Notes under the pieces: model-generated
Told to the model about the DNA's origin: nothing
Databases searched by the model: none
What the model saw: the letters and a program-made list of their open reading frames with translations, nothing else
Part shown: one piece after another, positions 1,326 to 61,322 of the stretch
How the letters are laid out: each line of letters begins with the position of its first letter
How positions within the stretch are numbered: the stretch's first letter is position 1
From: Candidatus Treponema equifaecale
Lineage (GTDB): Bacteria; Spirochaetota; Spirochaetia; Treponematales; Treponemataceae
DNA length: 64,000 nucleotides
Assembly (NCBI GenBank): GCA_018064905.1
Contig: JAGHUJ010000052.1
Location: 13,998-77,997 of the forward strand
Direction: 5' to 3'
Position numbers and translations under genes: made by a program

Positions 1326-2930
1326 ATGGCAGTTACTCTTTATTCACTTGGTGCGGCTCAGGAAGTTACTGGTTCCAAGCATGTTTTTGAAATTGATGGT
1401 CGCATGTACATGATTGACTGCGGGGCTTTTCAGGGTAAACGCGCTGAATCTGATCAGAAAAACAGAAAGTTTGATATTCCTGCTGATAAAATTGAATCGG
1501 TTATTTTGACCCATGCTCATTTTGATCATGTTGGACTTCTGCCTTTGCTGGTTAAAAAAGGCTTCAACGGCAATGTTTATGCAACTCCTGCTACCCGAGA
1601 CCTGGCTGACCTGATCATGATGGACAGTGCTCGAATTCAGGCTCGTGATGCTGAATATCTTCGTAAGCAGGCTTCCAAAAAAGGTGAAAAATTCAACTGG
1701 TCTCCTCTTTACAACGAAAAGGATTGTCTGAAGGCTGCAAATCAAATTGTTACGCTTTCATATAATAGAAAAATGTACATTGCTCCTGACGTTCAGCTGG
1801 AATATTTTGATGCCGGACACATTCTGGGTTCTGCTTATGCCTACATCACTATCAAGGGGCAGCGTGATGAAAACGGAAATCCAGTTAAAGTAACTTCTCA
1901 GGATAAAATTTCGATTTGGAACAAGCTTTTTGGATGGAAGAAGGATGACAAGAGGAATTCTCCGGACAGAAGAAAGGCCACTGCTGAAGAAAGGGCTGAA
2001 TATGCTGAAAAGGGCGGTGTAGAACGCAGAAGCGGCTATGACCGTCGTGAAGGTAAGGATGAAATCAGAATTCTTTACACTGGTGATTTAGGTCGAAAAA
2101 ACAAGCCTATCATCCGTGACCCTTCTACAAACGTTCCGCCGCCTGACTACATCATGATTGAAAGCACCTATGGAAATCGTCTCCATGAAGATTCTGTCCG
2201 TGCCATGGACGAGCTCAGAAAAGTTGTCCGCCGCACTGTTGAAAAGAAGGGCAAGCTGATTATTCCTTCATTCGCAATTGAGCGCACTCAGGAGCTTGTC
2301 TACTATTTACATCTCCTCGTTGACCAGAAAAAGATTCCGCAGATTCCAATTTATGTGGATTCCCCAATGGCAGTAAATGCGACTTCTATTTTCCAGGTTC
2401 ATCAGGAATGTTACAGTGACGACATCCACAACGCATTCCTTCAGCACCACAAAAATCCATTTGGTTTTGGCGCATTGAATTTTGTGAACAGCATTGAAGA
2501 ATCAAAGAGCCTGAACAAAAAAGAAGGGCCGATGATCATCATTTCTGCCGACGGTATGTGTGAAAGCGGTAGAATCGTTCATCATGTGGCAAACAATATT
2601 TCAGATCCTAGAAACACGATTCTCATTGTTGGATATATGGCTGAAAATACTTTGGGTCGCCGTATCAGGGATGGTGCAAAGGTCGTAAAAATCATGGGCG
2701 ATGAATACGATGTTAAGGCAAATGTTGAATGTATCAACGCTTTCTCGGCTCATGCTGATTATGAGGAAATGACTAAATGGCTCAAAACTATTGATACAAG
2801 CCGTCTTAAGAAAATTTTTATGGTTCACGGTGAAAAAGATGCCCAGGAATTCTTTGAAAAACATCTCAAAGAGAATGGATTCCCTAGCGTACAAATTGTA
2901 AAATATGGTGAAACCTACGAAATTGAATAA
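1326..2930 (+). CDS. MBL-fold beta-CASP metallo-hydrolase (putative RNase)
   Basis: HAHFDH, AGHILGS, TGDLG, FSAHAD motifs; start moved to ATG 1326 after GCGGAGG RBS. Confidence 0.9.
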   Translation: MAVTLYSLGAAQEVTGSKHVFEIDGRMYMIDCGAFQGKRAESDQKNRKFDIPADKIESVILTHAHFDHVGLLPLLVKKGFNGNVYATPATRDLADLIMMDSARIQARDAEYLRKQASKKGEKFNWSPLYNEKDCLKAANQIVTLSYNRKMYIAPDVQLEYFDAGHILGSAYAYITIKGQRDENGNPVKVTSQDKISIWNKLFGWKKDDKRNSPDRRKATAEERAEYAEKGGVERRSGYDRREGKDEIRILYTGDLGRKNKPIIRDPSTNVPPPDYIMIESTYGNRLHEDSVRAMDELRKVVRRTVEKKGKLIIPSFAIERTQELVYYLHLLVDQKKIPQIPIYVDSPMAVNATSIFQVHQECYSDDIHNAFLQHHKNPFGFGALNFVNSIEESKSLNKKEGPMIIISADGMCESGRIVHHVANNISDPRNTILIVGYMAENTLGRRIRDGAKVVKIMGDEYDVKANVECINAFSAHADYEEMTKWLKTIDTSRLKKIFMVHGEKDAQEFFEKHLKENGFPSVQIVKYGETYEIE

Positions 2931-2947
2931 GGATTGGTAAAGAAAAA

Positions 2948-3892
2948 GTGAAAAAGCTTACTAAAAATCTCGTTGCTGTCAGCTGTACTGTGCTGGCTTT
3001 GGGAATTCTGTTTGTTCTGGCTGTTTATGCCTTTGTGTTCAAGCCTTCATTTGAACGCCATGACCCAACTGAAAAAGATAATCTGAGTCATTTTAAATCT
3101 GAAGCCTTTCTTCAGAAAAATATTGCGGACACAGAATGGTTCTTTGAACAGAATCCGCAGGAGCTTACAATGAAATCCTTTGATGGACTGAATCTGTTTG
3201 CCTACGTGCTGCCTGCAGAAAATGCCAGGGGAACCTTTGTCCTGATGCACGGCTACCATTCCAGCCCGCTTCGTGAATATTCTTCCTTAATGAGATTTTA
3301 TCATGGTCTGGGCTACAATATTGTTCTGCCGTATCAGCGCACTCATGGCAAAAGCGAAGGAAAATATGTCACCTTTGGAATTAAGGAACGCTATGATCTT
3401 CGGGACTGGATTCTGGAGACCAACAAAATTTTTGGTGACCAGAACCCTGTTTATCTGCAGGGAATTTCTATGGGCTGTGCTACAACTGTGATGTGCCTTG
3501 GCTTTGATCTTCCTGAAAATGTTAAGGGGGCGGTTGCTGACTGCGGCTTTACTTCACCAAGAGAAATTATATGGAAGGTGCTTAAGAAGGACATGAAGAT
3601 GCCTTTTGCCAATGTGATTATGGCCTTGGGCAATGTCATGACTAAATTTTTTGCGGACTTCAGCATGGATGAATATTCAACCTTGCTGGCTCTCAGATAC
3701 AACAAAATTCCTGTGATTTTTATTCACGGTGCTGCTGATGATTTTGTTCCTGTAGAAATGACCTTCGCAAACTATCAGTACTGTACTTCCGAAAAATACC
3801 TTCATTTAGTGGCAGACTGTCCTCACGCAATTGCATACCTTATTGATGAAGAAGGCTACCACGACAAAGTCGTAAAATTCCTTGGACTGTAA
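2948..3892 (+). CDS. Alpha/beta hydrolase with N-terminal membrane anchor
   Basis: HGY, GISMG nucleophile elbow, HGAADDFV acid, C-terminal His; hydrophobic N-terminus. Confidence 0.85.
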   Translation: MKKLTKNLVAVSCTVLALGILFVLAVYAFVFKPSFERHDPTEKDNLSHFKSEAFLQKNIADTEWFFEQNPQELTMKSFDGLNLFAYVLPAENARGTFVLMHGYHSSPLREYSSLMRFYHGLGYNIVLPYQRTHGKSEGKYVTFGIKERYDLRDWILETNKIFGDQNPVYLQGISMGCATTVMCLGFDLPENVKGAVADCGFTSPREIIWKVLKKDMKMPFANVIMALGNVMTKFFADFSMDEYSTLLALRYNKIPVIFIHGAADDFVPVEMTFANYQYCTSEKYLHLVADCPHAIAYLIDEEGYHDKVVKFLGL

Positions 3893-3898
3893 AAAAAA

Positions 3899-3977
3899 CG
3901 GTGGTTGAGCCAAGTCGAAACCACCTTGTAATTAATGTTGCCGCGATGGTTTCGAGAGCCTCAACCGACGCGGCAAC
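3899..3977. repeat. REP-A doublet (A1 at 3899-3925, inverted A2 at 3937-3977) between convergent genes
   Basis: cggtggttgagccaagtcgaaaccacc followed by gttgccgcg-atggtttcgagagcctcaaccga-cgcggcaac. Confidence 0.9.
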
Positions 3978-3989: not shown

Positions 3990-5597
3990 TTAATTCACTG
4001 CTTCGTGGATTGTTTTTCTTACCATTCCTTTGCCGCTTACCATTGCAAGGAAATATTCCTTTGATTTCTGGTAAAGTGGCGAAGATGTAACATCAAATCC
4101 AAATATTTTTTCATTGGCAAGCAGCTTCTTGAATTTTTCTTCAGCATCTGCATTTTTTCCGCCGATTTCAATTCCTTCAAGAATTGGCTTTACGGATGGA
4201 ATGAGTGGATCTGGGGAAAGTTCAAATGCTTTTCCATCGTCATCAACTGCAAGAAGATATCTGGCCCACATTGCAAAAACCAGCGGAACAATTTTGAGTT
4301 TGTTCAAATCAAGTCCCTTTGACTGATAAGCCTTTACTGTCTCACCAAAACGAATCGAAAGCTTCTGGCTTGTATCTGTTGCAATTCGCTGTGGTGTGTC
4401 TGGCATAAATGGATTTGGAAGTCGCTTTGTAATTACTTCGTCAATGAATGATTTTGGTTCAATGATTTTTGGATCAACTACAACTGGAAGTCCTTCTTCA
4501 TAACCCAGAATTTCCACCATTTTCTTAAGGTCAGAATCCTTCATTTCGTCACAAATCAAATTAAAGCCCAAAAGACAGCCTGAAACTGCCAGAGAAGTGT
4601 GGAGAGGGTTCAGACAAGTGCAGACCTTCATCTTTTCAACCTTGTTTACTGTGTCCCTGTCCGTAAAATAAACCCCTGCCTTTTCAAGCGGTGGACGGCC
4701 GTTTGGAAATTTGTCTTCGATTACAAGGTACTGGGGCTCTTCTGCATTTACAAAAGGTGAAATGTAGGTTTTTCGTGAAGTTACCATAAGTTCTGTGTCT
4801 TCAAAACCGTCTTTCTTGAGCATTTCTGCAACCTTTGCATCTGGACGAGGTGTGATTTTATCTATCATTGACCACGGGAAGGCCACTTTTTTGTCATTTT
4901 TCAGGTATTCAATGAATTCCTGCGGAACATAGCCTTTTTTGCACCAGTTTTCTGCAATTTCAACGATAGCTGACTGCAATTTTTCTCCGTTGTGGGAACA
5001 GTTGTCCATGCTGACCATTGTTACAGGCAACTGACCAGCCTTGAATCTTGCAAAAAGAAGTCGTGTAAGATGGCACATGAACATTTTTGCATTTTCTGGA
5101 GTTGTTGCAAAATCTTCCACATAAGCTGGAAGGAGTTTTCCGTCTGGGCCGTAAAGTGCATAGCCTTTTTCTGTAATCGTAAAGGAAACCATTTTAAGGC
5201 TTGGATTTGTGAAGATTTTTTCAAATTCAGCCCAGTCATCCTTTAATTCCGGGTCACAGTTCAAAGCCCAGGCAATTGAACCGATTACTTCCTTTGAAAT
5301 GGAACCGTCTGCCTTTAATGTAACCCCAAGTGTCAGGTTGTCGTGTGCCTTGTAGAGAATGTCGATGATTTCAGGGTCGTGGCTGTTTCCAACTACGATT
5401 CCAGTGTTCATCAGGCCTTCATTCAAAAGCTTCTGGCAAAGTGCTGCAGGGAAAATTCTAAAGATGTTTCCGCCGCCAAAGTGAACCCATTCAGGTGATT
5501 TTTTTGTATTTTCTGAGACCTTTGCATAGTCAAAATCAAAAAGCTTGTAGCCGTTCCATTTTGATTTGTCAGCAAGTTCCTTAAGATTCAGTTTCAT
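3990..5597 (-). CDS. Mannitol dehydrogenase family protein (probable D-mannonate oxidoreductase, UxuB-like)
   Basis: VHFGGGNIFR, SFTITEKGY, SMDNCSHNG, MIDKITP motifs; clustered with uxuA. Confidence 0.85.
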   Translation of the reverse strand: MKLNLKELADKSKWNGYKLFDFDYAKVSENTKKSPEWVHFGGGNIFRIFPAALCQKLLNEGLMNTGIVVGNSHDPEIIDILYKAHDNLTLGVTLKADGSISKEVIGSIAWALNCDPELKDDWAEFEKIFTNPSLKMVSFTITEKGYALYGPDGKLLPAYVEDFATTPENAKMFMCHLTRLLFARFKAGQLPVTMVSMDNCSHNGEKLQSAIVEIAENWCKKGYVPQEFIEYLKNDKKVAFPWSMIDKITPRPDAKVAEMLKKDGFEDTELMVTSRKTYISPFVNAEEPQYLVIEDKFPNGRPPLEKAGVYFTDRDTVNKVEKMKVCTCLNPLHTSLAVSGCLLGFNLICDEMKDSDLKKMVEILGYEEGLPVVVDPKIIEPKSFIDEVITKRLPNPFMPDTPQRIATDTSQKLSIRFGETVKAYQSKGLDLNKLKIVPLVFAMWARYLLAVDDDGKAFELSPDPLIPSVKPILEGIEIGGKNADAEEKFKKLLANEKIFGFDVTSSPLYQKSKEYFLAMVSGKGMVRKTIHEAVN

Positions 5598-6284: not shown

Positions 6285-6470
6285 AGATTTCTCCACTCGC
6301 TGCGCTCGGTCGAAATGACAAAAAAATATCTGCCAATGTCGAAATGACAAAAAAATATCTGCCAATGTCGAAATGACACAAAAATATCTGCCAATGTCGA
6401 AATGACAAAAAAATATCTGCCAATGTCGAAATGACGCAAAATCAGCTGTCAAAGTTTGAAATGACAAACA
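6285..6470. repeat. REP-B half element plus 29-bp tandem array (4 near-perfect and 2 degenerate units)
   Basis: Unit GTCGAAATGACAAAAAAATATCTGCCAAT starts at 6309, 6338, 6367, 6396; degenerate units at 6425, 6454. Confidence 0.95.
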
Positions 6471-6477
6471 GTTTTCA

Positions 6478-6571
6478 TGTCATCTCGATTCGAATTCCTT
6501 GTCATCTCGATTCGAATTCCTTGTCATCGCGATTCGAATTCCTCGTCATCTCGAGCGCAGTCGAGAGATCT
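6478..6571. repeat. 22-bp tandem array (x3) ending in a REP-B half element
   Basis: TGTCATCTCGATTCGAATTCCT at 6478, 6500, 6522, then CGTCATCTCGAGCGCAGTCGAGAGATCT at 6544. Confidence 0.95.
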
Positions 6572-13656: not shown

Positions 13657-13717
13657 AAATGAATGAAAATCTCCTATGTTTTATAAGTTACAATAATAAC
13701 ATTACAAACTGTGCAAA

Positions 13718-13863
13718 AAAAGTGGGACGCAGGAAAAAAAAGTTAAGGAGGAGCCAAACAGGAACGAGAACGATTGTTCCCGGGCAGCGCCCAAAGCAAA
13801 GCGATTGAGGCGCGAAAGCCGGAGGATACCTTGGCTTTTTTTCCGTCGCTGGGACCCGCTTTT
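13718..13863 (+). repeat. Family D element, copy 1
   Basis: 5' AAAAGTGGGACGCAGGA(7-8)GTTAAGG and 3' GAAAGCCGGRGGATACCTTGGCTT...CCGTCGCTGGGRCCCGCTTTT shared with 61323. Confidence 0.85.
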
Positions 13864-13880
13864 TTAATTTGTTTATATTT

Positions 13881-14947: not shown

Positions 14948-17900
14948 CTAGTTAAAATATCTTACACCAGCCTGGAAGAGATTCTGGCATGAGTTGCCTG
15001 AACTTTCTGTTGCAGGGTTTCCGGCGATGTTCTTGATCAAATCAGAGCTTGAACCATTTACGCCAGTTCCGACTGTACGTTCTGAGTGACCCATTTTTCC
15101 AAGAACGAGACCGTTTGGAGAAGTGAGACCTTCAATAGCGAATGCTGAGCCGTTTGGATTGTCTGGTTCACAAACTGATGGAACGCCGAATTCATCACAG
15201 TACTGTGAGTAAACCTGTCCCTTCTCAAACAATTCCTTTGCCAAAGATTCGGTGATGTAGATTTTTCCTTCACCATGGCTTACAGGAATGTAGTGTGGGC
15301 GGGCATCCAGAACTGAAGCATCCAAAGCCCAAGGAGAAGCAGCACTTACCATTCTTGTACGAACTACGCGGCTTATGTGGCGGTGAATGTTGTTGTATGT
15401 AAGAGTTGGGTTTTCAGCAGCTGGTTCCATGATTTTTCCAAAAGGAACAAGACCAGTTTTGATCAAAGCCTGGAAACCGTTACAGATACCGAGAACAAGG
15501 TTCTTCTTGTCTTCAAGGTGGGCTGTAACTGCATCAGCAATGCGTTTTTCACGGATTACGTTTGCAATGAACTTACCAGAACCGTCAGGTTCGTCACCAG
15601 CTGAGAAGCCGCCTGCAAATGCGATGATCTGTGAATCAGAAATTTCTTTCTGGAGACCGTTCAAAGATTCTTCCAGATCCTGTGGAGTTCTGTTTCTGAA
15701 TACATAGATTTTAGAATCAGCGCCGGCAAGGTTGAATGCACGGGCCATGTCGTATTCACAGTTTGTACCAGGGAATACAGGAATGATTTCCTTTGGCTTA
15801 GCCTTAGATTTGTCCAACACGGTGATTGAGCTTGTCGAAATTACCGTGTTGCTGCTGGTTTCGACAGGCTCAACCGACGCAGCAAATTTTGCTCTGGCTT
15901 CTGCCAATGTTGGGTGTGAAGCTACTGCCCATTCAGGAAGCTTGTCCTGTTCCTTTGCGCCAGAAACTGGTGGGAATACCTTTGCAAGTTTTGATTCCCA
16001 TGCTGTGTAAAGTTCGTCCAGCTTGATTTCTGCCTTTGGAAGTGGAGCAACGCCCTGCATTTCAAATGAGATGATTGGGTCTTTCTGTGTGTTACCGATT
16101 TTGAATACAGTTGCGTTTACAAAACCGTTGTCCTCAAATTTTGGATCATCTGTTTCAACAAGAATTGAACCGTACTGAGGAGTGAACAAATCAGCTACAG
16201 TGTCGTTTGCGTTTCTGTAGAAACCGATTACTGTTGCAGAAGTTGGAATCTGTGTAAGCTGAACACCAATCTTGTTACCGAATGCCATTTTTGTAATTGC
16301 TTCAGCAATACCACCGGCACCTACAGGATACATTGCGCTGATTTTTCCAGCTTTGTTTGCTTCGTAAAGGGCATCGGAATTCTTTTTGAATGTGTCCCAG
16401 TTTGGAGCAAGTTCTGCAGTATATGGAACCTGAACCAGATAGATGTAGCTTCCGCTCTTTTTGAATGAGCCTGACTGTACATTTTCTGCTTCGTCGTGAG
16501 CAACTGCAAATGAAACCAGTGTGTGTGGAACATTGAGGTTTTCAAAAGTTCCGGACATTGAGTCTTTTCCACCGATTGAAGCACAACCCATTTCTCTCTG
16601 GGCATCAACTGAACCAAGAAGGGCAGCAGTTGGGTAACCCCAAGTTTTTGCATCAACAGTTCTACCAAAGAATTCCTGGTAAGACATTCTTGAAGTTGTG
16701 GCCTTACCACCAATACAAGTGATTTTTGCAAGAGAAGAAAGAACAGCAGTCTGAGCGCCGTGCCATGGAGACCAGTTTGCAACACGAGGATCAAAGCCGT
16801 AAGACATAAGTGAAACGGTTGAAGTTTCGCGAGGAGAAATTACAGGAATTTTTGCAGACATTGCACATTCTGGAGTTCCCTGATATTTTCCGCCAAATGG
16901 GAAAAGTACAGTTGAAGCACCGATAGAACCGTCGAAGCGTTCCTGAAGACCGCGCTGTGAACAGCATGCAAGATCAGACATATTTGCAATGAATGCATCG
17001 TGAATCTGTTCTTTTGTTGGCTGAGCACCTGGATTTTCACCAGTTGCACTGTTTGCATTTCCGAGAACTGCAGAAACAGAATCCAAAGGCTTAACCAGTG
17101 GAGACTGACGGTTTTCAGCAGGACTTTCAATAGAAGCCTTTGCTGTGTGTTCAGCACCAGCAGAATCAAGGAATGAGCGGTCAATGTCAACGATTGTCTT
17201 ACCGCGCCATTTCATTGTGAGCTTGTTTTTATCTGTTACAGTTGCAACAACAACTGCGTTAAGGTTTTCTTCGTTACAGTATTTGATGAACTTTTCTACA
17301 TCACCTGCACGAACAACAACTGCCATTCGTTCCTGTGATTCAGAAATTGCAAGTTCAGTACCGTTAAGTCCTTCATACTTCTTTGGAACTGCATCAAGAT
17401 TGATATCAAGTCCTGGAGCAAGTTCACCAACAGCAACTGAAACACCGCCTGCACCAAAATCGTTTGAACGGCGGATCATGTGGCTAACTTCTGGATTTCT
17501 GAAGAGACGCTGAATTTTTCTTTCTTCAACGGCATTACCTTTCTGAACTTCAGCAGCAGCAGTTGTAACTGATTTTTCTGTGTGAACTTTTGAAGAACCT
17601 GTAGCACCACCAATACCGTCACGGCCTGTACCGCCGCCAAGGAGAATGATGATGTCACCTGCTTCTGGAGTTTCGCGCATTACAGTTGCGTAAGGAGAAG
17701 CAGCGATTACAGCACCAAGTTCCATGCGTTTTGCAAGGTATCCAGGATGGTAAACTTCTGTAACCTGACCAGTTGTAAGACCAATCTGGTCTCCGTAAGA
17801 AGAGAAGCCCTGAGCAGCTTCGCGACAAATTTTTACCTGTGGAAGTTTACCCTGAAGTGTTGCTTCAAGTGGCTGAGTTGGGTCCCCTGCACCAGTTACG

Positions 17901-19039
17901 CGCATTGACTGGTAAACCCATGAACGGCCAGAAAGTGGGTCACGGATTGCACCACCAATACAAGTTGCAGCGCCACCAAATGGTTCGATTTCTGTAGGAT
18001 GGTTGTGTGTTTCGTTTTTGAACTGGAGAAGCCACTGTTCAACTTCTTCTTTGCCTTTTGGGAGAGGATTTCCATCTTTGTCTGTTGTGTAGTGAACGTC
18101 GATGAAGATTGAACATGCGTTGTTTTCTTCAGAAACTTCCATGTCGTCCAGCATTCCGTGCTTGCGAAGGTATTTTCCGCCAACAGTTGCCATGTCCATC
18201 AAAGTTAAAGGCTTGTCCTTGCGTTTTGCATACAAATCTGTGTGCATTGCCTTGTAGTTTTCAAGTGACTGCTTGAAAAGCTTTGCATAAGGTCCTTTTT
18301 CGATTTTGATGTCCTTGAGGACTGTATTGAAAGTAGTGTGACGGCAGTGGTCAGACCAGTAAGTATCAAGAACGCGGATTTCAGTTTCTGTAGGGTCGCG
18401 CTGAATTGACTTAAAGTATTTCTGAAGGAACTGAATGTCCGAAAGATCCATTGCAAGACCCATTTTTGCACGGTATGCGTCCAGTTCTTTCTTTCCATAT
18501 TTGATGAAGCCTTCAACAACTGGAATGTCACCAGGAACTTCTGACTTCATTTCAAGAGTTTCAGGAATTTTTGCGTCGGCAAGGCGTGAATCAACCGGGT
18601 TGATAAGGTATTTCTGAATCTTTGCAGCTTCATCAGCAGAAACGTTTCCAGAAAGGATAACCATTTTTGCACAGCGAACACGTGGAGGTTCAGTTCCAAC
18701 TTTTGCAGTGTTCTTCATTGACTCGCGGAGAAGTGAAAGACACTGTTCTGCTGAGTCTGCGCGCTGGTCGTACTGGCCCGGGAGATATTCCCAGATGATT
18801 ACAGTTTCACCTTCAGCGGCTTTAACTTCATCATAAGCAACGCTGTCGCTCTGTGGCTCTGAGAAAATGCGGAGAGCTGCCATCTTTGATACGTCTTCTG
18901 AAGTATTTTCGATGTCATAGCGGTTAAAGTAACGCACTCCCTTAACTGAGGAAATGCCCAAAAATCCATTGATTTCACTTAAAATGCTCTGAGCTTCACT
19001 CTGGAAGCCAGGCTTGCGTTCAACATAAATACGAAACAT
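14948..19039 (-). CDS. purL: Phosphoribosylformylglycinamidine synthase (single-chain large form)
   Basis: YWSDHCRH, KNETHNHPT, DFGAGG, GGKDSMSG, glutaminase GICNGFQ and HSER motifs. Confidence 0.97.
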   Translation of the reverse strand: MFRIYVERKPGFQSEAQSILSEINGFLGISSVKGVRYFNRYDIENTSEDVSKMAALRIFSEPQSDSVAYDEVKAAEGETVIIWEYLPGQYDQRADSAEQCLSLLRESMKNTAKVGTEPPRVRCAKMVILSGNVSADEAAKIQKYLINPVDSRLADAKIPETLEMKSEVPGDIPVVEGFIKYGKKELDAYRAKMGLAMDLSDIQFLQKYFKSIQRDPTETEIRVLDTYWSDHCRHTTFNTVLKDIKIEKGPYAKLFKQSLENYKAMHTDLYAKRKDKPLTLMDMATVGGKYLRKHGMLDDMEVSEENNACSIFIDVHYTTDKDGNPLPKGKEEVEQWLLQFKNETHNHPTEIEPFGGAATCIGGAIRDPLSGRSWVYQSMRVTGAGDPTQPLEATLQGKLPQVKICREAAQGFSSYGDQIGLTTGQVTEVYHPGYLAKRMELGAVIAASPYATVMRETPEAGDIIILLGGGTGRDGIGGATGSSKVHTEKSVTTAAAEVQKGNAVEERKIQRLFRNPEVSHMIRRSNDFGAGGVSVAVGELAPGLDINLDAVPKKYEGLNGTELAISESQERMAVVVRAGDVEKFIKYCNEENLNAVVVATVTDKNKLTMKWRGKTIVDIDRSFLDSAGAEHTAKASIESPAENRQSPLVKPLDSVSAVLGNANSATGENPGAQPTKEQIHDAFIANMSDLACCSQRGLQERFDGSIGASTVLFPFGGKYQGTPECAMSAKIPVISPRETSTVSLMSYGFDPRVANWSPWHGAQTAVLSSLAKITCIGGKATTSRMSYQEFFGRTVDAKTWGYPTAALLGSVDAQREMGCASIGGKDSMSGTFENLNVPHTLVSFAVAHDEAENVQSGSFKKSGSYIYLVQVPYTAELAPNWDTFKKNSDALYEANKAGKISAMYPVGAGGIAEAITKMAFGNKIGVQLTQIPTSATVIGFYRNANDTVADLFTPQYGSILVETDDPKFEDNGFVNATVFKIGNTQKDPIISFEMQGVAPLPKAEIKLDELYTAWESKLAKVFPPVSGAKEQDKLPEWAVASHPTLAEARAKFAASVEPVETSSNTVISTSSITVLDKSKAKPKEIIPVFPGTNCEYDMARAFNLAGADSKIYVFRNRTPQDLEESLNGLQKEISDSQIIAFAGGFSAGDEPDGSGKFIANVIREKRIADAVTAHLEDKKNLVLGICNGFQALIKTGLVPFGKIMEPAAENPTLTYNNIHRHISRVVRTRMVSAASPWALDASVLDARPHYIPVSHGEGKIYITESLAKELFEKGQVYSQYCDEFGVPSVCEPDNPNGSAFAIEGLTSPNGLVLGKMGHSERTVGTGVNGSSSDLIKNIAGNPATESSGNSCQNLFQAGVRYFN
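15817..15885. repeat. REP-A doublet in-frame inside purL
   Basis: acacggtgattgagcttgtcgaaattaccgtgt followed by ttgctgctggtttcgacaggctcaaccgacgcagcaa; homologous to 3899-3977. Confidence 0.88.
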
Positions 19040-23903: not shown

Positions 23904-23924
23904 AAGGGGAATTCTGATTGTAGC

Positions 23925-24267
23925 CGGTGGTTGAGCTCGGTCGAAACCACCATTATCAAAGAATTTATGGAATACGGGTATACCTATATTTTGGAATGTT
24001 CTGATGGTTCATATTATGTTGGCAGTACAAACGATTTAGAGCGGAGAATTGCTCAGCATAATGCAGGAGAAGGATCTGAATATACTAAACCCAGGTTGCC
24101 TGTAAAGCTTGTATACTTTGAAGAATGTTTAAGCATAAAAGAAGCTTTTTTACGGGAAAAGCAGATACAAGGCTGGAGCAGAAAAAAACGTGAGGCGTTA
24201 ATTGAAAAGCAGCATGAAAAGTTGCCAGAACTTGCTAAAAAGGTGGTTTCGACAAGCTCAACCACCG
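23925..24267. mobile_element. Candidate REP-A/GIY-YIG cassette: inverted REP-A copies (23925-23951, 24242-24267) enclosing the nuclease core
   Basis: Left cggtggttgagctcggtcgaaaccacc; right reverse complement cggtggttgagcttgtcgaaaccacc. Mobility is inferred, not shown. Confidence 0.55.
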
Positions 24268-24353
24268 AAACTGCATCACCAGACTCTGGTATCGAAACTG
24301 CAGAACCAGGCTCTGGTACCGCTACAGCACTAAGCTCAATCACCCCAGATTGA
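23967..24353 (+). CDS. GIY-YIG nuclease (UPF0213/YhbQ-YazA-like) with repeat-derived C-terminal tail
   Basis: GYTYILECSDGSYYVGST, RRIAQHN, YTKPRLPVKLVYFEE, REKQIQGWSRKKREALI; start moved to ATG 23967; tail runs through REP-A and 27-bp repeats. Confidence 0.9.
   Translation: MEYGYTYILECSDGSYYVGSTNDLERRIAQHNAGEGSEYTKPRLPVKLVYFEECLSIKEAFLREKQIQGWSRKKREALIEKQHEKLPELAKKVVSTSSTTETASPDSGIETAEPGSGTATALSSITPD
24264..24344 (+). repeat. 27-bp tandem duplication plus degenerate REP-A arm
   Basis: accgaaactgcatcaccagactctggt (24264) and atcgaaactgcagaaccaggctctggt (24291); taagctcaatcacc at 24331-24344. Confidence 0.8.
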
Positions 24354-25553: not shown

Positions 25554-25563
25554 ATGAAAATGA

Positions 25564-25727
25564 AATGGGGCTGTCTAATAGGTAATGATTTGTCATTTCG
25601 AGTGAAGTCGACAAGCACAATCGTTTTCGTGCTTGTTTGTAATCTATAATTCTTTGTATCACAATGATTTACAGACCTCTCCACTACGGTCGAGGTGACA
25701 CCTGCGAACTTTTAGGACAGCCCCATT
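25564..25727. mobile_element. MITE-like element, copy 1, with a 110-bp REP-B core (25591-25700)
   Basis: 12-bp terminal IR AATGGGGCTGTC/GACAGCCCCATT; core TGTCATTTCGA...TCGAGGTGACA; second copy at 27984. Confidence 0.7.
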
Positions 25728-25748: not shown

Positions 25749-26510
25749 TTATCTTCTTACTATAACAACCTGTTTTGAGCTGAAATAAGGCTCAGAAAAA
25801 TCCACCAGCTTTTTTCTTTCTTCTGTTACTGTCATTCCTGCTGCAATAAAGTCAATTGTTCCTGACTGGAGTGCTTCGATCAGGCTTCCGAATGACATAT
25901 CGATTATGTGAAGTCTTTTTCCGTTGTTTTTTGCAATCAATTCACCCAAAGAAGCGTCAAAACCTACAACTTTTGTGCCTTCTGTGTATTCAAATGGTGG
26001 AAAGGACGCATTTGTTCCCATTTTCAGAACCTCGTTTGAATCAGCCGGTTCAATTTTTGGAATGACGACGTTTCCATCCAGGGGCATGAATTTTCTTATC
26101 ATCGCAAGATAAGTTCCGTCCTTGTGAATCGCATCTATGGTTTTGTTCACCTTTTCCAAAAGCTCTGAATTTCCTTTTTTTACAGCGATGGCATATTCTT
26201 CAAATTTTAACTGCAGATCGATTACTTTTAAATCTGGATTTTCTTTTGCCAGCTGCCTTGCCGGAAGCTCATCAAGCATCACAACATCAACTGTTTTGTT
26301 CTTTAATGCCAATGCCGCTTCACTTCCTGTTCTAAATGGAACTGTGTTTGCGCCCTTCAGGTCATTCAGCAGAAAATCTTCACCAGTTGTTCCAGCTTGA
26401 CAGCCGATTTTAAGCCCATTCAAGTCTGAAACCGTGGAAACAACAATCTGTCTGGAGCAGCCGAATAAAAAAAGAGAAGCGAATAGCAATGGAGAAAGAA
26501 ACTTTTTCAT
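25749..26510 (-). CDS. Polar amino acid ABC substrate-binding lipoprotein (circularly permuted SBP_bac_3)
   Basis: Lipobox LFGC; GTNASFPPFEY...GMTVTEERKKLVDFSEPY lies C-terminal to DLNGLKIGCQAGTTG...YAIAVKKGN; start moved to ATG 26510. Confidence 0.85.
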   Translation of the reverse strand: MKKFLSPLLFASLFLFGCSRQIVVSTVSDLNGLKIGCQAGTTGEDFLLNDLKGANTVPFRTGSEAALALKNKTVDVVMLDELPARQLAKENPDLKVIDLQLKFEEYAIAVKKGNSELLEKVNKTIDAIHKDGTYLAMIRKFMPLDGNVVIPKIEPADSNEVLKMGTNASFPPFEYTEGTKVVGFDASLGELIAKNNGKRLHIIDMSFGSLIEALQSGTIDFIAAGMTVTEERKKLVDFSEPYFSSKQVVIVRR

Positions 26511-26608
26511 ATAATGATTACCGTGTTTAAAAGTTATTTTAAGATTATAGCACACTTTATAAATTTTTGGTTTATTTTTCCTGAATTTTGGCCGATAATT
26601 GAAATAAT

Positions 26609-27946
26609 ATGGAATCTTTCTCTTTAATTGTAGCTATAGCGATAATTGTAGCGTTCGGAACTATTTTAATTGCATTCTCTACTCGTAAAAAATCTGGAAA
26701 AAAGGGCAAGCAGAAGGGCCGTGCTCAGATAATCAAGGAAGCCACAAGAAAGCTTTCTCAGGACCCACACAATCCTGACGGACTTATTTCCCTTGGTGAA
26801 CTTTATTTCAACGAGCGTGCCTGGGACAAAGCCTATCCAATTTACGAAACACAGCTGAACGTAGCGCCTGCTCACAAGGAAATCGATCCATTTAAAGCTG
26901 CTCTTCGACAGGGTATCTGTGCAGTAAAGCTGAACAAGCTTCAGGATGCCTTCAGAGGTTTGAGCGCGGCATACAATATAAATCCTAATGATTATGAAGT
27001 GAACTATTATCTTGGCCTTGCATGCTACAAGAACAATGAATTTGAAAAGGCGACTCCAAGATTCAAGAAAGTTGTAGTCCTTAAACCGGATGCAGCAAAC
27101 ATAAACGGACCTCTGGGACTTTCTCTCTACAAGGCAAAGCATTACAAAGAATCTCTGGGCTACTTGAAAAAGGCGCTGGATGAAAATCCTGAGAACAAGG
27201 AAGCTTTGTTTGCAATGGCTGATGCGATGAATGAAAGCGGATATGGTGACAAGGCCATGAAAGTTTTCCTTCATCTTCGTCCGGATCCAGAATTTGGTGC
27301 CCGTTCTTGTCTTGCTGCAGGTATGTTCCATTTAAAGACAAATCAGCAGGAAAAAGCGATTCAGGATTTTGAAATTGGTCTTAAGCACCAGAATATGACG
27401 CAGGATGTTGCTCTGGAAATTCGTTACAGACTTGCAAACGCATATTTTTCAATGAACGCCATCTCAAAAGGTATTGGCGTTTTGAGTGAAATTCAGGCCA
27501 TGAATCCTCAGTACAAGGATGTTCCTCAGCTTCTGGCACGCTATCAGGAGTTGAACCAGAACAAGAACCTGCAGGTTTATCTGATGGCCAGTTCCAGCGA
27601 TTATGTTGCTCTTTGCCGCCGTGTAGTAATGTTCTTCTACCAGAAGGCTGTGGCAAAGATTGTGGATATTTCCGTAACTCCAGAATGTGTAGAAATTCTT
27701 ATGAATGTTGAATTTGTCCGTTCTGAAGAAGTTCATGTGTTCCGTTTTTACAGAACGACTGGTGTTACTTCGGACTTCAATATCCGTGACCTGCACGCAA
27801 AGGTTTCTGAAACTAAGGCCGACAAGGGCGTATGTATTACCGCAGGTTTGTTCAGTGACGAGGCCAGAAGATATGCAGAAGGCCGCCCAATCGATTTGAT
27901 TGAAAAAGAAGGTCTGGTAAGAATCCTTAAAAAGATTGAAATGTAG
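26609..27946 (+). CDS. Membrane-anchored TPR protein with C-terminal Mrr-like domain
   Basis: N-terminal TM, multiple TPRs, C-terminal ADKGVCITAGLFSDEARRYAEGRPIDLI. Confidence 0.8.
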   Translation: MESFSLIVAIAIIVAFGTILIAFSTRKKSGKKGKQKGRAQIIKEATRKLSQDPHNPDGLISLGELYFNERAWDKAYPIYETQLNVAPAHKEIDPFKAALRQGICAVKLNKLQDAFRGLSAAYNINPNDYEVNYYLGLACYKNNEFEKATPRFKKVVVLKPDAANINGPLGLSLYKAKHYKESLGYLKKALDENPENKEALFAMADAMNESGYGDKAMKVFLHLRPDPEFGARSCLAAGMFHLKTNQQEKAIQDFEIGLKHQNMTQDVALEIRYRLANAYFSMNAISKGIGVLSEIQAMNPQYKDVPQLLARYQELNQNKNLQVYLMASSSDYVALCRRVVMFFYQKAVAKIVDISVTPECVEILMNVEFVRSEEVHVFRFYRTTGVTSDFNIRDLHAKVSETKADKGVCITAGLFSDEARRYAEGRPIDLIEKEGLVRILKKIEM

Positions 27947-27983
27947 CTTTTTAAAAAAGACAATATGTTGAAAAGATAAAAAA

Positions 27984-28142
27984 GTGGGACGTCCAATAAG
28001 TAGTAATTTGTCATTTCGACCGAAGTCGACAAGCACAATCGTTGTCGTGCTTGTTTGTAATCTATAATTCTTTGTATTACAAGAATTTATAGACCTCTCG
28101 ACCATGCTCGAGGTGACATTTTTAAACTTTTGGGACAGCCCC
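27984..28142. mobile_element. MITE-like element, copy 2, with a 110-bp REP-B core (28009-28118)
   Basis: Aligns along its length with 25567-25724; right end GGGACAGCCCC intact, left end diverged. Confidence 0.7.
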
Positions 28143-28167
28143 TTTTTTATTTTAAACTTATCTTGCG

Positions 28168-37600: not shown

Positions 37601-37726
37601 GCACCAGCGATGGTAGCCCCGTAGTTCTGAAATTGCGGCGGTGGTTGAGTTTATCGAAACCTCCAGAGCAATTTTAGAATGAAGCGAAAGCGAAAGGGCG
37701 AACGTAGCGACCCGACAGGGTGGTGC
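37601..37726 (+). repeat. Composite element: family C-like shell with nested REP-A (37639-37664)
   Basis: Reverse complement aligns with 56880-56980; stem ttctgaaattgc/gcaattttagaa encloses REP-A. Confidence 0.8.
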
Positions 37727-46714: not shown

Positions 46715-46740
46715 CGGTGGTTGAGCTTGTCGAAACCACC
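46715..46740 (+). repeat. REP-A copy
   Basis: cggtggttgagcttgtcgaaaccacc. Confidence 0.92.
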
Positions 46741-46758
46741 AGTCTGCTGGAGGCATAT

Positions 46759-50006: not shown

Positions 50007-50122
50007 GTCATTTCGACTAAGCGAAGCGCATGGAGAAATCTTGCTTAATTTAAAATAGATTTCTCGACTACGCTCGAAATGACTGTAAAAAGGTAACGCT
50101 CGAAATGACTGTAAAAAGGTAA
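50007..50122. repeat. Complete REP-B element (50007-50083) with 26-bp duplication of its right end
   Basis: GTCATTTCGACTAAGCGAAGCGCATGGAGAAATCT...AGATTTCTCGACTACGCTCGAAATGAC; CGCTCGAAATGACTGTAAAAAGGTAA at 50071 and 50097. Confidence 0.9.
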
Positions 50123-50580: not shown

Positions 50581-51578
50581 AATCAATAAAAATCAAATTT
50601 TTTTCTATATTTTTATCTGTAATGGCTTTGAATTTTATCGGCTGCAAAAAATCTGGCGAAAATTCAGCTTCATCAAAATCAAAAATCAATGTTGTTGCCA
50701 CAATTTTTCCTTTTTACGACTGGACCAAAAACATTTCGGCAGGTTCAGAAAAAATTAATCTGGAGCTGCTTGTAAAAAATGGCGTTGATTTGCATTCGTT
50801 TCAGCCAAGTGCCGGGGATATCATAAAAATTTCTTCCTGCGATGTCTTGATTTATGTTGGCGGTGAAAGCGATTCATGGGTTGATGACGTGTTGAAAAAT
50901 CCCGTGAATAAAAATCAGAAGGTTATAAAACTGATGGAAGTTCTTTCTGATTCTGTTAAGGAAGAAGAAATCGTTGAAGGAATGGTGGTGACCACAGACT
51001 CAACCACCGAGGAAACAGGCTCAATCACTGAAGATGATGAAATTGAATATGACGAGCATGTGTGGCTTAGTCTTGTGAATGCCAAGATTTGCTGTGAAAA
51101 AATTGCAGAAGTTCTGGCAACATTGGATGAAAATGAAAAATCGATTTTTGAAAAAAATCTTTCTGACTACACGGCACAAATTGACGGCGTTTGGAAAAGT
51201 TTATTTTCGGCAGAAAACATTTCAGAAAACCAAAATGCAATCATTATTTGTGACAGGTTTCCATTCAGATACATGGTTGATGAATTGGGAATAAAATATT
51301 TTGCGGCTTTTGCAGGGTGTTCAGCAGAAACTGAAGCCAGCTTTGAAACAATTGCATTTCTTTCTGGAAAAGTTCAGGAACTGGGATTGAACCGGGTTTA
51401 TGTAACAGAAAGTTCTGACAAAAAAATTGCAAGAACCGTAATAAAAAATGCAGGCCTGACGGAAAATGAATGCAAAATCATTGTCTTGAATTCAATGCAG
51501 AATGTGACAATGGCTCAGGCTCAGAACGGAATAAGTTACATTGAAATAATGAAGAAAAATTTTGAGGAATTAAAATAA
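50577..51578 (+). CDS. Zn/Mn ABC transporter substrate-binding lipoprotein (ZnuA/AdcA-like)
   Basis: Lipobox FIGC; DLHSFQPS, DEHVWLS, DRFPFRY motifs; ATG overlaps fur stop (ATGA). Confidence 0.88.
   Translation: MKSIKIKFFSIFLSVMALNFIGCKKSGENSASSKSKINVVATIFPFYDWTKNISAGSEKINLELLVKNGVDLHSFQPSAGDIIKISSCDVLIYVGGESDSWVDDVLKNPVNKNQKVIKLMEVLSDSVKEEEIVEGMVVTTDSTTEETGSITEDDEIEYDEHVWLSLVNAKICCEKIAEVLATLDENEKSIFEKNLSDYTAQIDGVWKSLFSAENISENQNAIIICDRFPFRYMVDELGIKYFAAFAGCSAETEASFETIAFLSGKVQELGLNRVYVTESSDKKIARTVIKNAGLTENECKIIVLNSMQNVTMAQAQNGISYIEIMKKNFEELK
50984..51009 (-). repeat. Degenerate REP-A copy inside the metal-binding protein gene
   Basis: ggtggtgaccacagactcaaccaccg, 20/25 identical to 24242-24266. 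Confidence 0.55.
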
Positions 51579-55186: not shown

Positions 55187-55192
55187 GAAAAA

Positions 55193-55218
55193 GGTGGTTT
55201 CGACTGGCTCAACCACCG
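55193..55218 (-). repeat. REP-A copy in the 42-bp trpE-trpGD gap
   Basis: ggtggtttcgactggctcaaccaccg. Confidence 0.92.
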
Positions 55219-55228
55219 TGGAGAAAAT

Positions 55229-56827: not shown

Positions 56828-56829
56828 AA

Positions 56830-56864
56830 AATTAGGAAGTAGGAATGAGGAATTAGGAGTTTGG
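56830..56864 (+). repeat. Heptamer array (5 units)
   Basis: aattagg aagtagg aatgagg aattagg agtttgg. Confidence 0.75.
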
Positions 56865-57004
56865 AGGTTCCGGCGGCAAGCCGCCGTCGGGCTTTTCGTG
56901 GTTCCGCCTTTCGGCTCCATTCTAAAATCACTATGGAGGTTTCGACAGGCTCAACCACCGCCGTGATTTTAGAACGCCTGCGGCGCCACTACAATCCCTA
57001 ACCC
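56863..57004 (-). repeat. Family C element with nested REP-A (56935-56960)
   Basis: Reverse complement GGGTTAGG...GCCCGAC...GGAACCTCC; perfect 12-bp stem ttctaaaatcac/gtgattttagaa encloses REP-A. Confidence 0.8.
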
Positions 57005-57057
57005 GAGAAATCGAAAAGGTAAAAACTAAAAGTTGTCAGTGGGAAAAATCTGGGATT

Positions 57058-57231
57058 CTTAAGGGCGGAGCCCTTAAGCGGTGCCGGGAAGTTGGGAGGT
57101 TTAAGGAGGGAAGAAACCCTCGCTTCCGAGTAGGTAGGGAGTGCCAGGAGAGTGAAAAACGCATGAGATGCGTTTTTAGCGAGTCTCTTGAACAGCTATG
57201 CTGTGAAAGGTTGCTTCCCTCCTTATCCCCT
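57058..57231 (+). repeat. Family E large hairpin element
   Basis: cttaagggc-ggag-cccttaag hairpin; long stem aaggagggaag.aacc / ggtt.cttccctcctt; inner aaaaacgcat/atgcgttttt. Confidence 0.55.
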
Positions 57232-57249
57232 GACATGGAAATGTCAAAA

Positions 57250-58755
57250 ATGAAAAATGTAATCGCTGAAATAGTTGAAAGACGCAAAAAGGACATTGCT
57301 GAGAGAGGATATTCTTTTGGGTTTGAAATACCTGAAAAACGAACTCGTCCAGTAAATCCCTTCATGGCCGAAAAAGGCGTGATTCTTGAAGTAAAGCGGG
57401 CCAGCCCAAGTAAGGGTGATATTGCTCCAGGTTTGGATTCCGCTGAAACAGCCAGAAAATATCGTGCCAATGGTGCCAGTGCTATCAGCTGTCTTACTGA
57501 AGAAAATTATTTTAAGGGCAGCCTGCAGGATTTGATGAACGTTTGCAATGCAGTTCCAGATGTGGCAGTTTTGCGAAAGGATTTTCTTATTGATGAAGAA
57601 GAAATCGACATTGCTTACCGTTGTGGTGCAGATGCTGTTCTTCTGATTTCTGGAATGCTGACTCTGGAAAAAATGCTTTCCATGACAAAAAAGTGCAGGG
57701 ATCTTGGAATCCGCGCTCTGGTGGAAGTCCGCACACTGGAAGATGCAGATAAGGTTCTTGAAGTAAAAAAACAATATGCAGATACAATCGTTTGTGGTGT
57801 TAATTCAAGAAACCTTAAAGACTTTACAATCGATCTTCTGGTTCCGGCAATGCTCAAAGAAAAACTGGGCGGCAAAGTTATTTTTGAAAGTGGAATCACA
57901 ACACCGGACGCAGCAGCAAAAATCGGTTCAATGGGCTTTACGGGAATTCTTCTTGGTGAATTTGCCGCACGAAATCCTGAAAAAGCCGGAGAATTTGTAA
58001 AGGCCTTCAAGCAGACAGATGAAAATGCCTGCGGAAGAAAACTGATTGACCTGGCAGTTAAAATCAACAGACATGCACATGATTCTGTTGAATCAGCAGA
58101 AAAAAAGATGGTTTCGACAAGCTCAACCACCGTTCATAAAGACAACGGTTTTGACGTGGTTCAGTCTGCTAAACCTATGGTAAAAATCTGCGGCCTTACA
58201 CGCAAAGAAGATGTTCTTCTGGCAGATTCATTGGGTGCAGATTTTGTGGGCTTCATTTTTGCCACAGAATTTGGTCGCAACGTGTACGGAGAAAAATTCG
58301 ACGCGCTTAAGGATTGTCTGAAAACTGTAAAGGCTTACAAGGTTGCGGTTGTAACAAGACCTGAAACAGAAGAAGCAAAGGCTGCGGCTGAACTGGTAAA
58401 ACAGGGCGTGCTGGATTTTGTTCAGCTCCACGGAATTGAATACGAAGCAATGCCAGAATACCTGAAAGAAGTTCCACACTATTTTGCAGTGACTTCAAAA
58501 ACAGAAATCGAAAGTTCAAGAACCGATGCATTGATTGCAAAAGGCGAGCCAAGATTTCTTCAGGACTGCCGGGAGCACAAATATGGAACGCTGGATCACC
58601 TGTGGCTTGCAGGCGGCGTAACTCCAGAAAATGTGGCCCAGCTGATTTCAGACTTTAAGCCAGAACTGGTAGATGTTTCAAGCGGAGTTGAAGACGAAGG
58701 AAATTTAGGCGTAAAGAATCCAGAAAAATTGAAGAAATTTTTTGAAGAAGTGTAG
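57250..58755 (+). CDS. trpC: Bifunctional indole-3-glycerol phosphate synthase / phosphoribosylanthranilate isomerase (TrpC-TrpF)
   Basis: EVKRASPSKG, LRKDFL, GVNSRNL, ESGI; VKICGLT, VQLHG, LAGG, DVSSGVE. Start uncertain (57235, 57241 or 57250). Confidence 0.92.
   Translation: MKNVIAEIVERRKKDIAERGYSFGFEIPEKRTRPVNPFMAEKGVILEVKRASPSKGDIAPGLDSAETARKYRANGASAISCLTEENYFKGSLQDLMNVCNAVPDVAVLRKDFLIDEEEIDIAYRCGADAVLLISGMLTLEKMLSMTKKCRDLGIRALVEVRTLEDADKVLEVKKQYADTIVCGVNSRNLKDFTIDLLVPAMLKEKLGGKVIFESGITTPDAAAKIGSMGFTGILLGEFAARNPEKAGEFVKAFKQTDENACGRKLIDLAVKINRHAHDSVESAEKKMVSTSSTTVHKDNGFDVVQSAKPMVKICGLTRKEDVLLADSLGADFVGFIFATEFGRNVYGEKFDALKDCLKTVKAYKVAVVTRPETEEAKAAAELVKQGVLDFVQLHGIEYEAMPEYLKEVPHYFAVTSKTEIESSRTDALIAKGEPRFLQDCREHKYGTLDHLWLAGGVTPENVAQLISDFKPELVDVSSGVEDEGNLGVKNPEKLKKFFEEV
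58107..58132 (-). repeat. REP-A copy in-frame in the TrpC-TrpF linker
   Basis: gatggtttcgacaagctcaaccaccg, encoding MVSTSSTT. Confidence 0.88.
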
Positions 58756-58794
58756 CAGATTGAAGGCAGCTCTGAATGGGGCTGCTTTTTTATG

Positions 58795-61265: not shown

Positions 61266-61322
61266 TATCTGTTGAATTTTTAATGGTATGAAACACAGAT
61301 CATGTAAGTAAATGTGTCCTGA

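Follow-up and report, generated by a model that had tools for sequence, protein, structure and literature searches.

A dispersed hairpin doublet inserted in frame in the inter-domain linker of PurL in a gut Treponema, and its association with a small GIY-YIG nuclease gene

The 64-kb stretch of contig JAGHUJ010000052.1 of Candidatus Treponema equifaecale analyzed in this work (hereafter the window, the only part of the genome examined, with around 20 of its proteins scanned against Pfam) carries on its minus strand, at 14948-19039, the gene purL, coding for a single-chain phosphoribosylformylglycinamidine (FGAM) synthase of 1363 amino acids (aa) and recognized from the list of open reading frames (ORFs), its translation and 36 orthologous loci of Treponema. 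Within this gene, at 15817-15885, lie 69 nucleotides (nt), AACACGGTGATTGAGCTTGTCGAAATTACCGTGTTGCTGCTGGTTTCGACAGGCTCAACCGACGCAGCAAA, that consist of two short hairpin units arranged head to head and are read on the minus strand as residues 1052-1074 of the protein (FAASVEPVETSSNTVISTSSITV). Translation of the 1363-aa ORF shows that the reading frame is unbroken across this segment. A preliminary description of the same DNA, in which the repeat was called REP-A, had noted that a doublet at 3899-3977 recurs inside purL. This doublet occupies 3898-3977, between two convergent genes, and the two segments do align unit for unit, apart from indels at three places that measure 1, about 9-11 and 2 nt. 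The in-frame reading proposed there was also confirmed, the approximate range of residues 1052-1075 being replaced by the exact one given above. Around 8 kb from purL, on the plus strand (23967-24353), a gene encoding a small GIY-YIG nuclease is bordered by further copies of the same hairpin. That a dispersed hairpin doublet was inserted in frame into a linker of PurL is, in our opinion, very probable.

Unit A1 (15820-15847), in forward orientation on the minus strand, is read as VISTSSIT, and its stem is lengthened to 11-12 bp by the native codons TCACCGTG; unit A2 (15849-15885, plus strand) has an outer stem, TTGCTGC/GCAGCAA, with a 2-nt bulge, and gives AASVEPVETSS in minus-strand reading. 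With respect to the reference doublet at 3898-3977, A1 is CGGTGATTGAGCTTGTCGAAATTACCG versus CGGTGGTTGAGCCAAGTCGAAACCACC and A2 is TTGCTGCTGGTTTCGACAGGCTCAACCGACGCAGCAA versus TTGCCGCGATGGTTTCGAGAGCCTCAACCGACGCGGCAA. Both purL units fold singly as DNA hairpins with 11-nt loops (-7.2 and -8.1 kcal/mol; z -3.4 and -2.2) and, being inverted copies, are also able to pair together into one long hairpin, while the whole region folds better than shuffled sequence, both as RNA (z -2.6) and as DNA (z -3.2). Retention of hairpin pairing had been anticipated, and the individual folding of the two units agrees with it. The accompanying proposal of covariation in the A2 outer stem holds as far as the difference itself is concerned (TTGCCGC/GCGGCAA versus TTGCTGC/GCAGCAA), but not as a substitution traced along a lineage, since the two copies are paralogous. 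No T-run is present 3' of either purL hairpin on the sense strand, and a terminator scan calls nothing at the doublet. Among sequencing runs, the best match reached at most 13% of the sampled words, and none was close to the window sequence.

The insert had been placed just before the glutaminase domain, and the comparison with Salmonella PurL (1T3T) bears this out: the glutaminase domain aligns from around residue 1079 of the window protein, the alignment beginning at KAKPKEIIPVFPG, four residues past the end of the insert. In an AlphaFold model of PurL residues 922-1363, with a mean predicted local distance difference test score (pLDDT) of 86 and a predicted template modelling score (pTM) of 0.82, a helix at model residues 122-134 is followed by a coil (135-161) and by the first glutaminase strand (162-167); the insert corresponds to model residues 131-153, and pLDDT is below 50 at 143-156. 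According to this model, the insert sits in a flexible linker between the FGAM-synthetase and glutaminase domains and not in the folded core. Mapping onto the structure model thus yields the low-confidence coil between both domains that would be expected from a tolerated linker insertion of a repeat element, an idea also sustained by the existence of 30 orthologues without the segment.

These come from a genome scan in which PurL was located at 36 loci; almost all of them bear the label Treponema (T. berlinense, T. saccharophilum and numerous metagenome-assembled genomes, MAGs, from rumen and gut). In the 30 orthologues the site is empty and reads ARAK-xxxFTV-LDKSKAKP, with six residues where the window protein has 23, whereas it is filled in the window and in locus L012 (another species, Treponema MAG114), as ARAK-[F/V]AASVEPVETSSNTVISTSSITV-LDKSKAKP. 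At the DNA level, 9 nt gave way to 60 nt, the gene growing by 51 nt and the protein by 17 aa. The gap of about 23 aa predicted for Treponema orthologues is therefore present, although its net size is 17 aa, since the insertion took the place of 9 nt of the former linker; orthologues lacking the repeat do not share the same linker with the window protein, but have the six residues instead. As its right border the insertion has TCACCGT, which is native to the FTV codons and at present constitutes the 3' arm of the A1 stem. Locus L023, the sister of L012, retains GCAGATACATTCACCGTA, matching the outgroup sequence AAAGATACATTCACAGTA, which indicates that the empty site is ancestral and the insert derived. 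In locus L022, from a third species, a different doublet is found at the same junction, GTCATTGAGCCTGTCGAAATGAC plus GGTGGTTTCGACACGCTCAACCACC, read as AVIEPVEMTKTGGFDTLNH; since this locus is 88% identical to the clade formed by L036, L020 and L002, all of them empty at the junction, the latter must have been struck at least two times independently. Search for distant PurL homologues with a 224-aa segment, which returned short fragments only, gave the insert in none of them; the only uses of this set were to provide a negative control and to supply the alignment behind the structure model.

The inserts of the window and L012 are identical at 65 of 69 positions, versus 81.8% for the whole gene (binomial P=0.003), and at 20 of 23 third codon positions, versus 63% for the gene (P=0.011). 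Of the four positions at which they differ, two compensate each other in the extended A1 stem, both changes being synonymous (AAC...GTG in the window, AAT...GTA in L012), and this pair, located in orthologous inserts, is better founded as a compensatory change than the A2 difference between paralogues. Over most of its length the window purL is nearest to L012 and L023, third-position identity being 70% between these two and 63% between either of them and the window. In the segment comprising nt 2757-3000 of the gene (around 16040-16283 of the window), identity is around 81% to the L020/L002 clade and 60-70% to L012/L023, while the resemblance to L012/L023 returns in the 22 nt that follow the insert, the signal near the insert resting on 8 informative sites. 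Judging from this distribution of identities, the window purL is a recombinant mosaic. A neighbour-joining tree of the proteins that set the window apart from L012 was disregarded, the nucleotide analysis having revealed it as an artefact of the mosaic segment. Given that L023 lacks the insert, its occurrence in the window as well as in L012 has to be explained in one of three ways: the filled allele was transferred by recombination, L023 had a filled allele that was replaced, or an identical insertion took place a second time. Recombination would be the favoured one.

The repeat to which the purL doublet belongs has a unit of around 26 nt, GGTGGTTTCGACAAGCTCAACCACCG, with a 7-bp stem GGTGGTT/AACCACC (7-8 bp across units) and the 11-nt loop TCGACAAGCTC. 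The loop, TCGACARGCTC, is invariant, and the stem varies in sequence with pairing kept; opposed units form terminal inverted repeats, CGGTGGTTGAGC...GCTCAACCACCG. A 24-nt core pattern gives 3 matches in the window and 0.00 in dinucleotide-preserving shuffles, and one of 19 nt (GGTTTCGANNNNCTCAACC, 2 mismatches at most) gives 8 matches versus 0.13 in such shuffles. Of the 11 clear units counted over the 64 kb, 7 lie outside coding sequence and 4 within it; purL holds two of the latter, and the TrpC-TrpF linker and the GIY-YIG tail one each. The reference doublet (census units 3907, minus, and 3952, plus) occupies the gap between a hydrolase gene (2948-3892, plus) and a mannitol dehydrogenase-like gene (3990-5597, minus), preceded by an A-run and followed by a T-run, so that each of its units resembles an intrinsic terminator for one of the two convergent genes; a consensus terminator scan does not call the units, since their loops exceed its 8-nt limit. 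The census is completed by the purL units (15828, minus; 15861, plus), those around the GIY-YIG gene (23933, minus; 24249, plus) and five single ones. Two of these are intergenic and on the minus strand, one after hisD (37639-37666, census 37647), within a 62-nt repeat having an outer stem, and the other 16 nt past the feoB stop codon (46715-46742, census 46723). Three are on the plus strand: one in the 42-nt trpE-trpGD spacer (55188-55219, census 55200), where L160, a related Treponema locus, shows a diverged hairpin at the same place; one with an outer stem (56914-56975) in the trpGD-trpCF spacer (56930-56961, census 56942); and one in frame in the TrpC-TrpF linker (58102-58133, census 58114), read as MVSTSSTT and situated within a 93-nt insertion with respect to L160. 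A probable decayed unit, seen in the window sequence only, is in frame in a surface loop of ZnuA (50979-51017, plus; MVVTTDSTT).

When 27 units from the window and from L012, L022, L023, L037 and L038 were aligned, the TTT.GA and CTCAA positions were invariant, and two stem pairs covaried, one with CG in place of GC in 5 units and the other with AU in place of GC in 7, none being unpaired at the latter. The covariation score was matched by 1 of 500 shuffles, the changes reflecting few subfamilies and not many independent events. Comparison with Rfam at gathering thresholds gave no match anywhere in the window, and a description of the hairpin family was not found in a search of full-text literature. 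One coding hairpin of purL (16533-16546, GGAACTTTTGAAAACCTCAATGTTCC, read within MSGTFENLNVP) was rejected as a further insertion, being present in every orthologue; it mimics the unit, with a stem and a TTxGA...CTCAA loop, and constitutes a trap for pattern searches.

The GIY-YIG gene encodes a core of around 92 aa followed by a 36-aa tail derived from the repeat, and is the candidate for the cognate enzyme. Its sole domain is PF01541 (Pfam, E 8e-20), and no NCBIfam model fits the protein. A hairpin unit is located 16 nt upstream of the start codon (23924-23951, minus), at the left end, and another directly after the core (24237-24267, plus), at the right end, where it is read as VVSTSSTT; the two are in terminal-inverted-repeat geometry. 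Units flank the gene on both sides in the window and in loci L037, L038 and L111, of which L037 is a syntenic Treponema locus, L038 has a different gene context and three further units downstream, and L111 has two tandem GIY-YIG genes with units at 45% G+C; in L049 (33% G+C) one unit precedes the GIY-YIG gene. Unit-encoded peptides (VVSTSSTT, VVEPVETT or related) were identified in 43 of the 120 best GIY-YIG homologues, with 63 of 66 sites after the core, and in none of 120 PurL fragments taken as a control; homologues without a tail cluster at 89-98 aa. The 3898 and purL doublets have the same outward-facing ends as the GIY-YIG flanks, CGGTGGTTGAG...CTCAACCACCG, and on this basis look like gene-less miniatures of the GIY-YIG element. 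Arrays of hairpins with the same loop and other stems are present downstream of the GIY-YIG genes in L111 (2280-4040) and L038 (10340-10450), for example GTTGCC-TTCGACAAGCTCA-GGCAAC in the former and three tandem GTCATT-stem units in the latter; the GTTGCC/GGCAAC stem of L111 is the outer stem of unit A2 at 3939-3977 of the window.

The unit is open in five of its six frames: GGFDKLNH, VVSTSSTT and WFRQAQPP in forward direction, and RWLSLSKP and VVELVETT in reverse, where the third frame holds a TGA stop. In-frame copies are not restricted to PurL. Between one and five unit peptides appear in the TrpC-TrpF linker of 15 of 120 TrpCF homologues, some of them decaying (e.g. VVSSASTT and VISRASMT), while the closest orthologues (78% identity, 473-474 aa) have none. 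In metagenomes, in-frame units were detected in an RHS/YD protein, in the linker of an SGNH esterase (as a doublet) and in an HD-like protein. The exact 19-mer GGTTTCGACARGCTCAACC is present in at least 120 metagenome contigs, and the 80 that were read range from 30% to 75% G+C, with flanking stems that covary (GGT/ACC, TCA/TGA, GCT/AGC, CGT/ACG); both this core and that of the GIY-YIG protein remain conserved over a wide span of G+C contents. Tandem arrays of the 19-nt core, with 3-4 copies spaced 30-40 nt, occur in the metagenome loci L050, L074, L099 and L119, at low as well as high G+C. Viral contigs gave only 11 core matches, so that phages are not among the main carriers. Around purL, the 36 related loci contain 6 units in 311 kb, indicating that copy number is strongly lineage-dependent.

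Several known systems have features in common with these hairpins. Rickettsia palindromic elements (RPEs) were reportedly dealt with by Ogata and colleagues in 2000, and REP/REPIN-RAYT systems, it is said, by Nunvar in 2010 and by Bertels and Rainey in 2011, works also cited in PMC11893778. The likeness to REP/REPIN-RAYT systems lies in the inverted hairpin doublets copied as a unit, in an enzyme gene flanked by inverted repeat copies and in most copies being intergenic, after genes; the associated gene here encodes a GIY-YIG nuclease, however, and not a Y1 HUH transposase, and the GTAG tag is absent from the units. With RPEs and intragenic CGTC/GTAG REPs they share the presence of small palindromic repeats in frame in genes of known proteins, mostly as dimers of 20-30 aa thought to lie in flexible linkers or loops, with a peptide of no evident function. 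Extragenic copies, a frame that is kept, a gap in orthologues and a linker location, by which intragenic REPs and RPEs are recognized, are all found in our case, the last one in the structure model. The host here is a free-living gut spirochaete instead of an obligate intracellular bacterium, and a candidate enzyme gene adjoins the units. The CGTC REP design (an unpaired CGTC tag, a stem of 8-9 bp starting with A-T, a loop of 4-5 nt and a 3-nt tail) is not that of the units, most of which start with CGGT on the reverse strand, only those of A2 type reading CGTC (CGTCGGTTGAG), and whose stem has 7-8 bp. Intragenic REP dimers encoding 20-30 aa are common, and RPE-4 and RPE-6 have been shown to belong to the CGTC-type REPs (Di Nocera et al., 2013, PMC3733652), so that the precedent of the Rickettsia elements invoked in the preliminary description turns out to be closer than was supposed there. 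RU/ERIC of enterobacteria and the MITEs (miniature transposable elements with inverted repeats) of Coxiella are also short non-autonomous, ORF-bearing repeats that are found within genes and lengthen proteins (PMC2759123; PMC5896051; reviewed in PMC10969869), but they measure at least 100-170 bp and derive from transposase-bearing insertion sequences, while the purL insert has 69 bp and consists of two 26-nt hairpins.

The resemblance to Ssn nucleases concerns the enzyme as well. These GIY-YIG proteins of around 94 aa (CDD family cd10448) cut single-stranded DNA, in a sequence-specific manner and sparing double-stranded DNA and RNA, beside NTS/SRM hairpins located on either side of their genes and scattered over the genome; NTS, the target of the GIY-YIG nuclease SsnA of N. 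meningitidis, is a subset of the Neisseria dRS3 (CGTC-1) repeats, and Rickettsia is among the SRM-rich genera (Chenal et al., 2025, PMC11893778). Both cases present a single-domain GIY-YIG protein of around 90-95 aa whose gene has a short dispersed hairpin at either side, a distribution over phyla and a hairpin-gene-hairpin layout resembling an insertion sequence. Differences exist in the hairpin, NTS having a conserved unpaired 5' tag, a GC-rich stem and a 3-nt loop versus the variable stem and invariant 11-nt loop of the present units, and in the fact that 4 of the 11 clear units here are within coding sequence. By analogy, the GIY-YIG/hairpin pair would resemble the Ssn/hairpin system in its working and is probably a member of it.

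With all these data, we consider it probable that the 69 nt of purL are a copy, made of two units and devoid of a gene, of a dispersed hairpin element whose family is tied to the GIY-YIG nuclease; with less assurance, by extension from the Ssn systems, we lean towards this protein being the cognate enzyme of the hairpins. The nuclease would recognize the hairpin on single-stranded DNA, and the spread or the upkeep of the hairpin family would be due to it. One doublet would have entered the DNA for the unstructured junction between FGAM synthetase and glutaminase, putting 60 nt in the place of 9 nt, and could have been tolerated there owing to the five open frames out of six, the small polar residues encoded (SVEPVET, VISTSSIT) and the location in a disordered surface linker. 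The peptide would then be a by-product, and the DNA hairpin the propagating entity. Several observations argue against this proposal. The GIY-YIG gene is present in only 2 of the 80 metagenome loci with the core, which is weak as evidence of association, although such a figure would be expected if hairpins far outnumber genes. The SRM pattern HGTCWYN(0-2)YYVSBRHN(0-5)WNVSBRGN(0-2)RNCYNB gives 1 match in the window, at none of the units, and does match an NTS control, and the loop of CGTC REPs has 4-5 nt versus 11-12 nt here. The closest solved structures of the GIY-YIG protein are UPF0213 proteins (1ZG2, E 6e-16, and 1YWL), and its gene is at a syntenic position in L037, and thus not visibly moving. 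As for purL, no target-site duplication was seen at the insertion, and the pre-existing TCACCGT at the right border is also compatible with microhomology recombination.

These last points lead to a different view of the copying step, in which no enzymatic transposition took place and the doublet reached purL by ectopic recombination or template switching via microhomology (AACCACCGT and the FTV codons, TTCACCGT), followed by short-patch homologous recombination between Treponema lineages. We hold this as a tentative option, clearly the less probable one, and it affects the copying step only, so that it is compatible with the proposed nature of the element. It would account for the pre-existing right border, for the lack of duplication and for the replacement, and not splitting, of 9 nt; for the presence of the insert in the window and L012 and not in L023, sister of the latter; for the identity of the two inserts above that of the gene, overall (65 of 69 versus 81.8%) and at third codon positions (20 of 23 versus 63%); and for the mosaic structure of the window purL, with its L020-like segment (nt 2757-3000) and the L012/L023-like 22 nt after the insert, even though the mosaic signal beside the insert depends on those 8 informative sites. 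It leaves unexplained, on the other hand, the different doublet at the same junction of L022, as well as the flanks (AAAAAG...CCACCG) shared by many sites.

Retention of the hairpins for a benefit to the host, be it as an mRNA structure that slows the ribosome, as an antisense or internal-termination anchor or as a functional flexible linker, seems improbable to us. Conservation between the window and L012 is higher in the insert than at the synonymous sites of the gene, yet a recent transfer would equally give rise to high conservation; the compensatory pair in the A1 stem (2 of the 4 differences), the recurrence at domain boundaries (PurL, TrpC-TrpF, SGNH esterase) and the folding of the region beyond that of shuffled sequence could also be understood in this manner, but 30 of 33 full or near-full orthologues work without the insert, the unit is also found in unrelated linkers, tails and intergenic DNA, the copies in the TrpCF linker are decaying, and at the doublet there is neither a sense-strand T-run nor a positive terminator scan. 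We give still less credit to an ordinary REP/REPIN family moved by a RAYT (a Y1 HUH transposase) encoded elsewhere, with the GIY-YIG protein as a bystander. The head-to-head doublets are indeed REPIN-like, and a RAYT gene could lie beyond the 64 kb and the 20 or so Pfam-scanned proteins covered here; nevertheless, a GTAG tag is missing from the units, GIY-YIG genes of unrelated contigs again show the hairpin-gene-hairpin layout, a third of the GIY-YIG homologues have unit-encoded tail peptides, and the 19-nt core and the GIY-YIG core are conserved together over very different G+C contents. As for an artefact, either a chance likeness of low-complexity sequence or an assembly chimera, it can practically be dismissed: the numbers of core matches in shuffles (0.00 for the 24-nt and 0.13 for the 19-nt pattern) speak against the former, and the intact frame, the same insert in the independent assembly of L012 and a different one in L022 refute the latter.

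Other repeats and gene differences were observed in the window. Two adjoining tandem arrays are located at 6309-6453, with around 5 copies of the 29-nt unit GTCGAAATGACAAAAAAATATCTGCCAAT, and at 6473-6554, with 3-4 copies of a 22-nt unit; within the 29-nt array, GTCGAAATGAC represents the 3' half of the GTCATT-stem hairpin variant of L022 and L038. A 35-nt inverted pair, 86% complementary (6285-6319, AGATTTCTCCACTCGCTGCGCTCGGTCGAAATGAC, and 50007-50041, GTCATTTCGACTAAGCGAAGCGCATGGAGAAATCT), may represent a second, longer hairpin family with a common GTCATTTCGAC start. The trpGD-trpCF spacer (56828-57240) is hairpin-rich and measures around 410 nt, including the 62-nt repeat in common with 37624-37685, while that of L160 has 10 nt; a CAAX-protease-like (Rce1-like) gene (58792-59862) lies between trpCF and trpB in the window, L160 having a 286-nt spacer and no gene there. 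Another repeat family, at 13717-13864 and 61322-61442, comprises a 73-nt copy pair (85% identity) and an adjoining 32-nt pair, one of the 73-nt copies being downstream of a thioredoxin-like gene beside purL and the other upstream of trpA. Finally, a 165-nt direct repeat with 84% identity (25563-25727 and 27981-28145, 2.4 kb apart) flanks the ORFs at 25749-27946.

An in-frame dimer of palindromic repeats in a protein linker is a known kind of event, and the family described here is itself associated with a GIY-YIG gene. What goes beyond the ordinary is that the PurL junction has been struck repeatedly and independently, that the share of in-frame units is high, and that the loop, unlike the published consensus, is invariant across phyla. 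One could go further and suppose that the small GIY-YIG nucleases that have the invariant 19-nt centre GGTTTCGACARGCTCAACC as their mark form a distinct clade spanning phyla, which recognizes the conserved loop, and not a 5' tag, and actively seeds doublets, including those in protein linkers. This is a speculation that we consider rather unlikely to be correct. Were it true, the hairpins at domain boundaries would not be passive, since cuts in single-stranded DNA would make them end points of recombination tracts, and domains of enzymes such as PurL would be exchanged between species through them; the mosaic structure of purL, where the nearest relative switches beside the doublet, is a hint in this direction.

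This work extends in-frame palindromic insertion from intracellular Rickettsia to free-living gut spirochaetes and links it to a candidate enzyme. For annotation, it accounts for odd peptides (VVSTSSTT, VVEPVETT, LSLSK, GGFDKLNH) in linkers, tails and spurious ORFs of Treponema and many other bacteria. The small GIY-YIG nuclease and the 26-nt hairpin constitute a concrete pair amenable to experimental analysis and, Ssn-type nucleases being of interest as site-specific cutters of single-stranded DNA, a loop conserved from 30% to 75% G+C would offer a useful new specificity. Besides, the inter-domain junctions of essential enzymes such as PurL and TrpCF appear as places that the same selfish DNA has struck repeatedly and independently.

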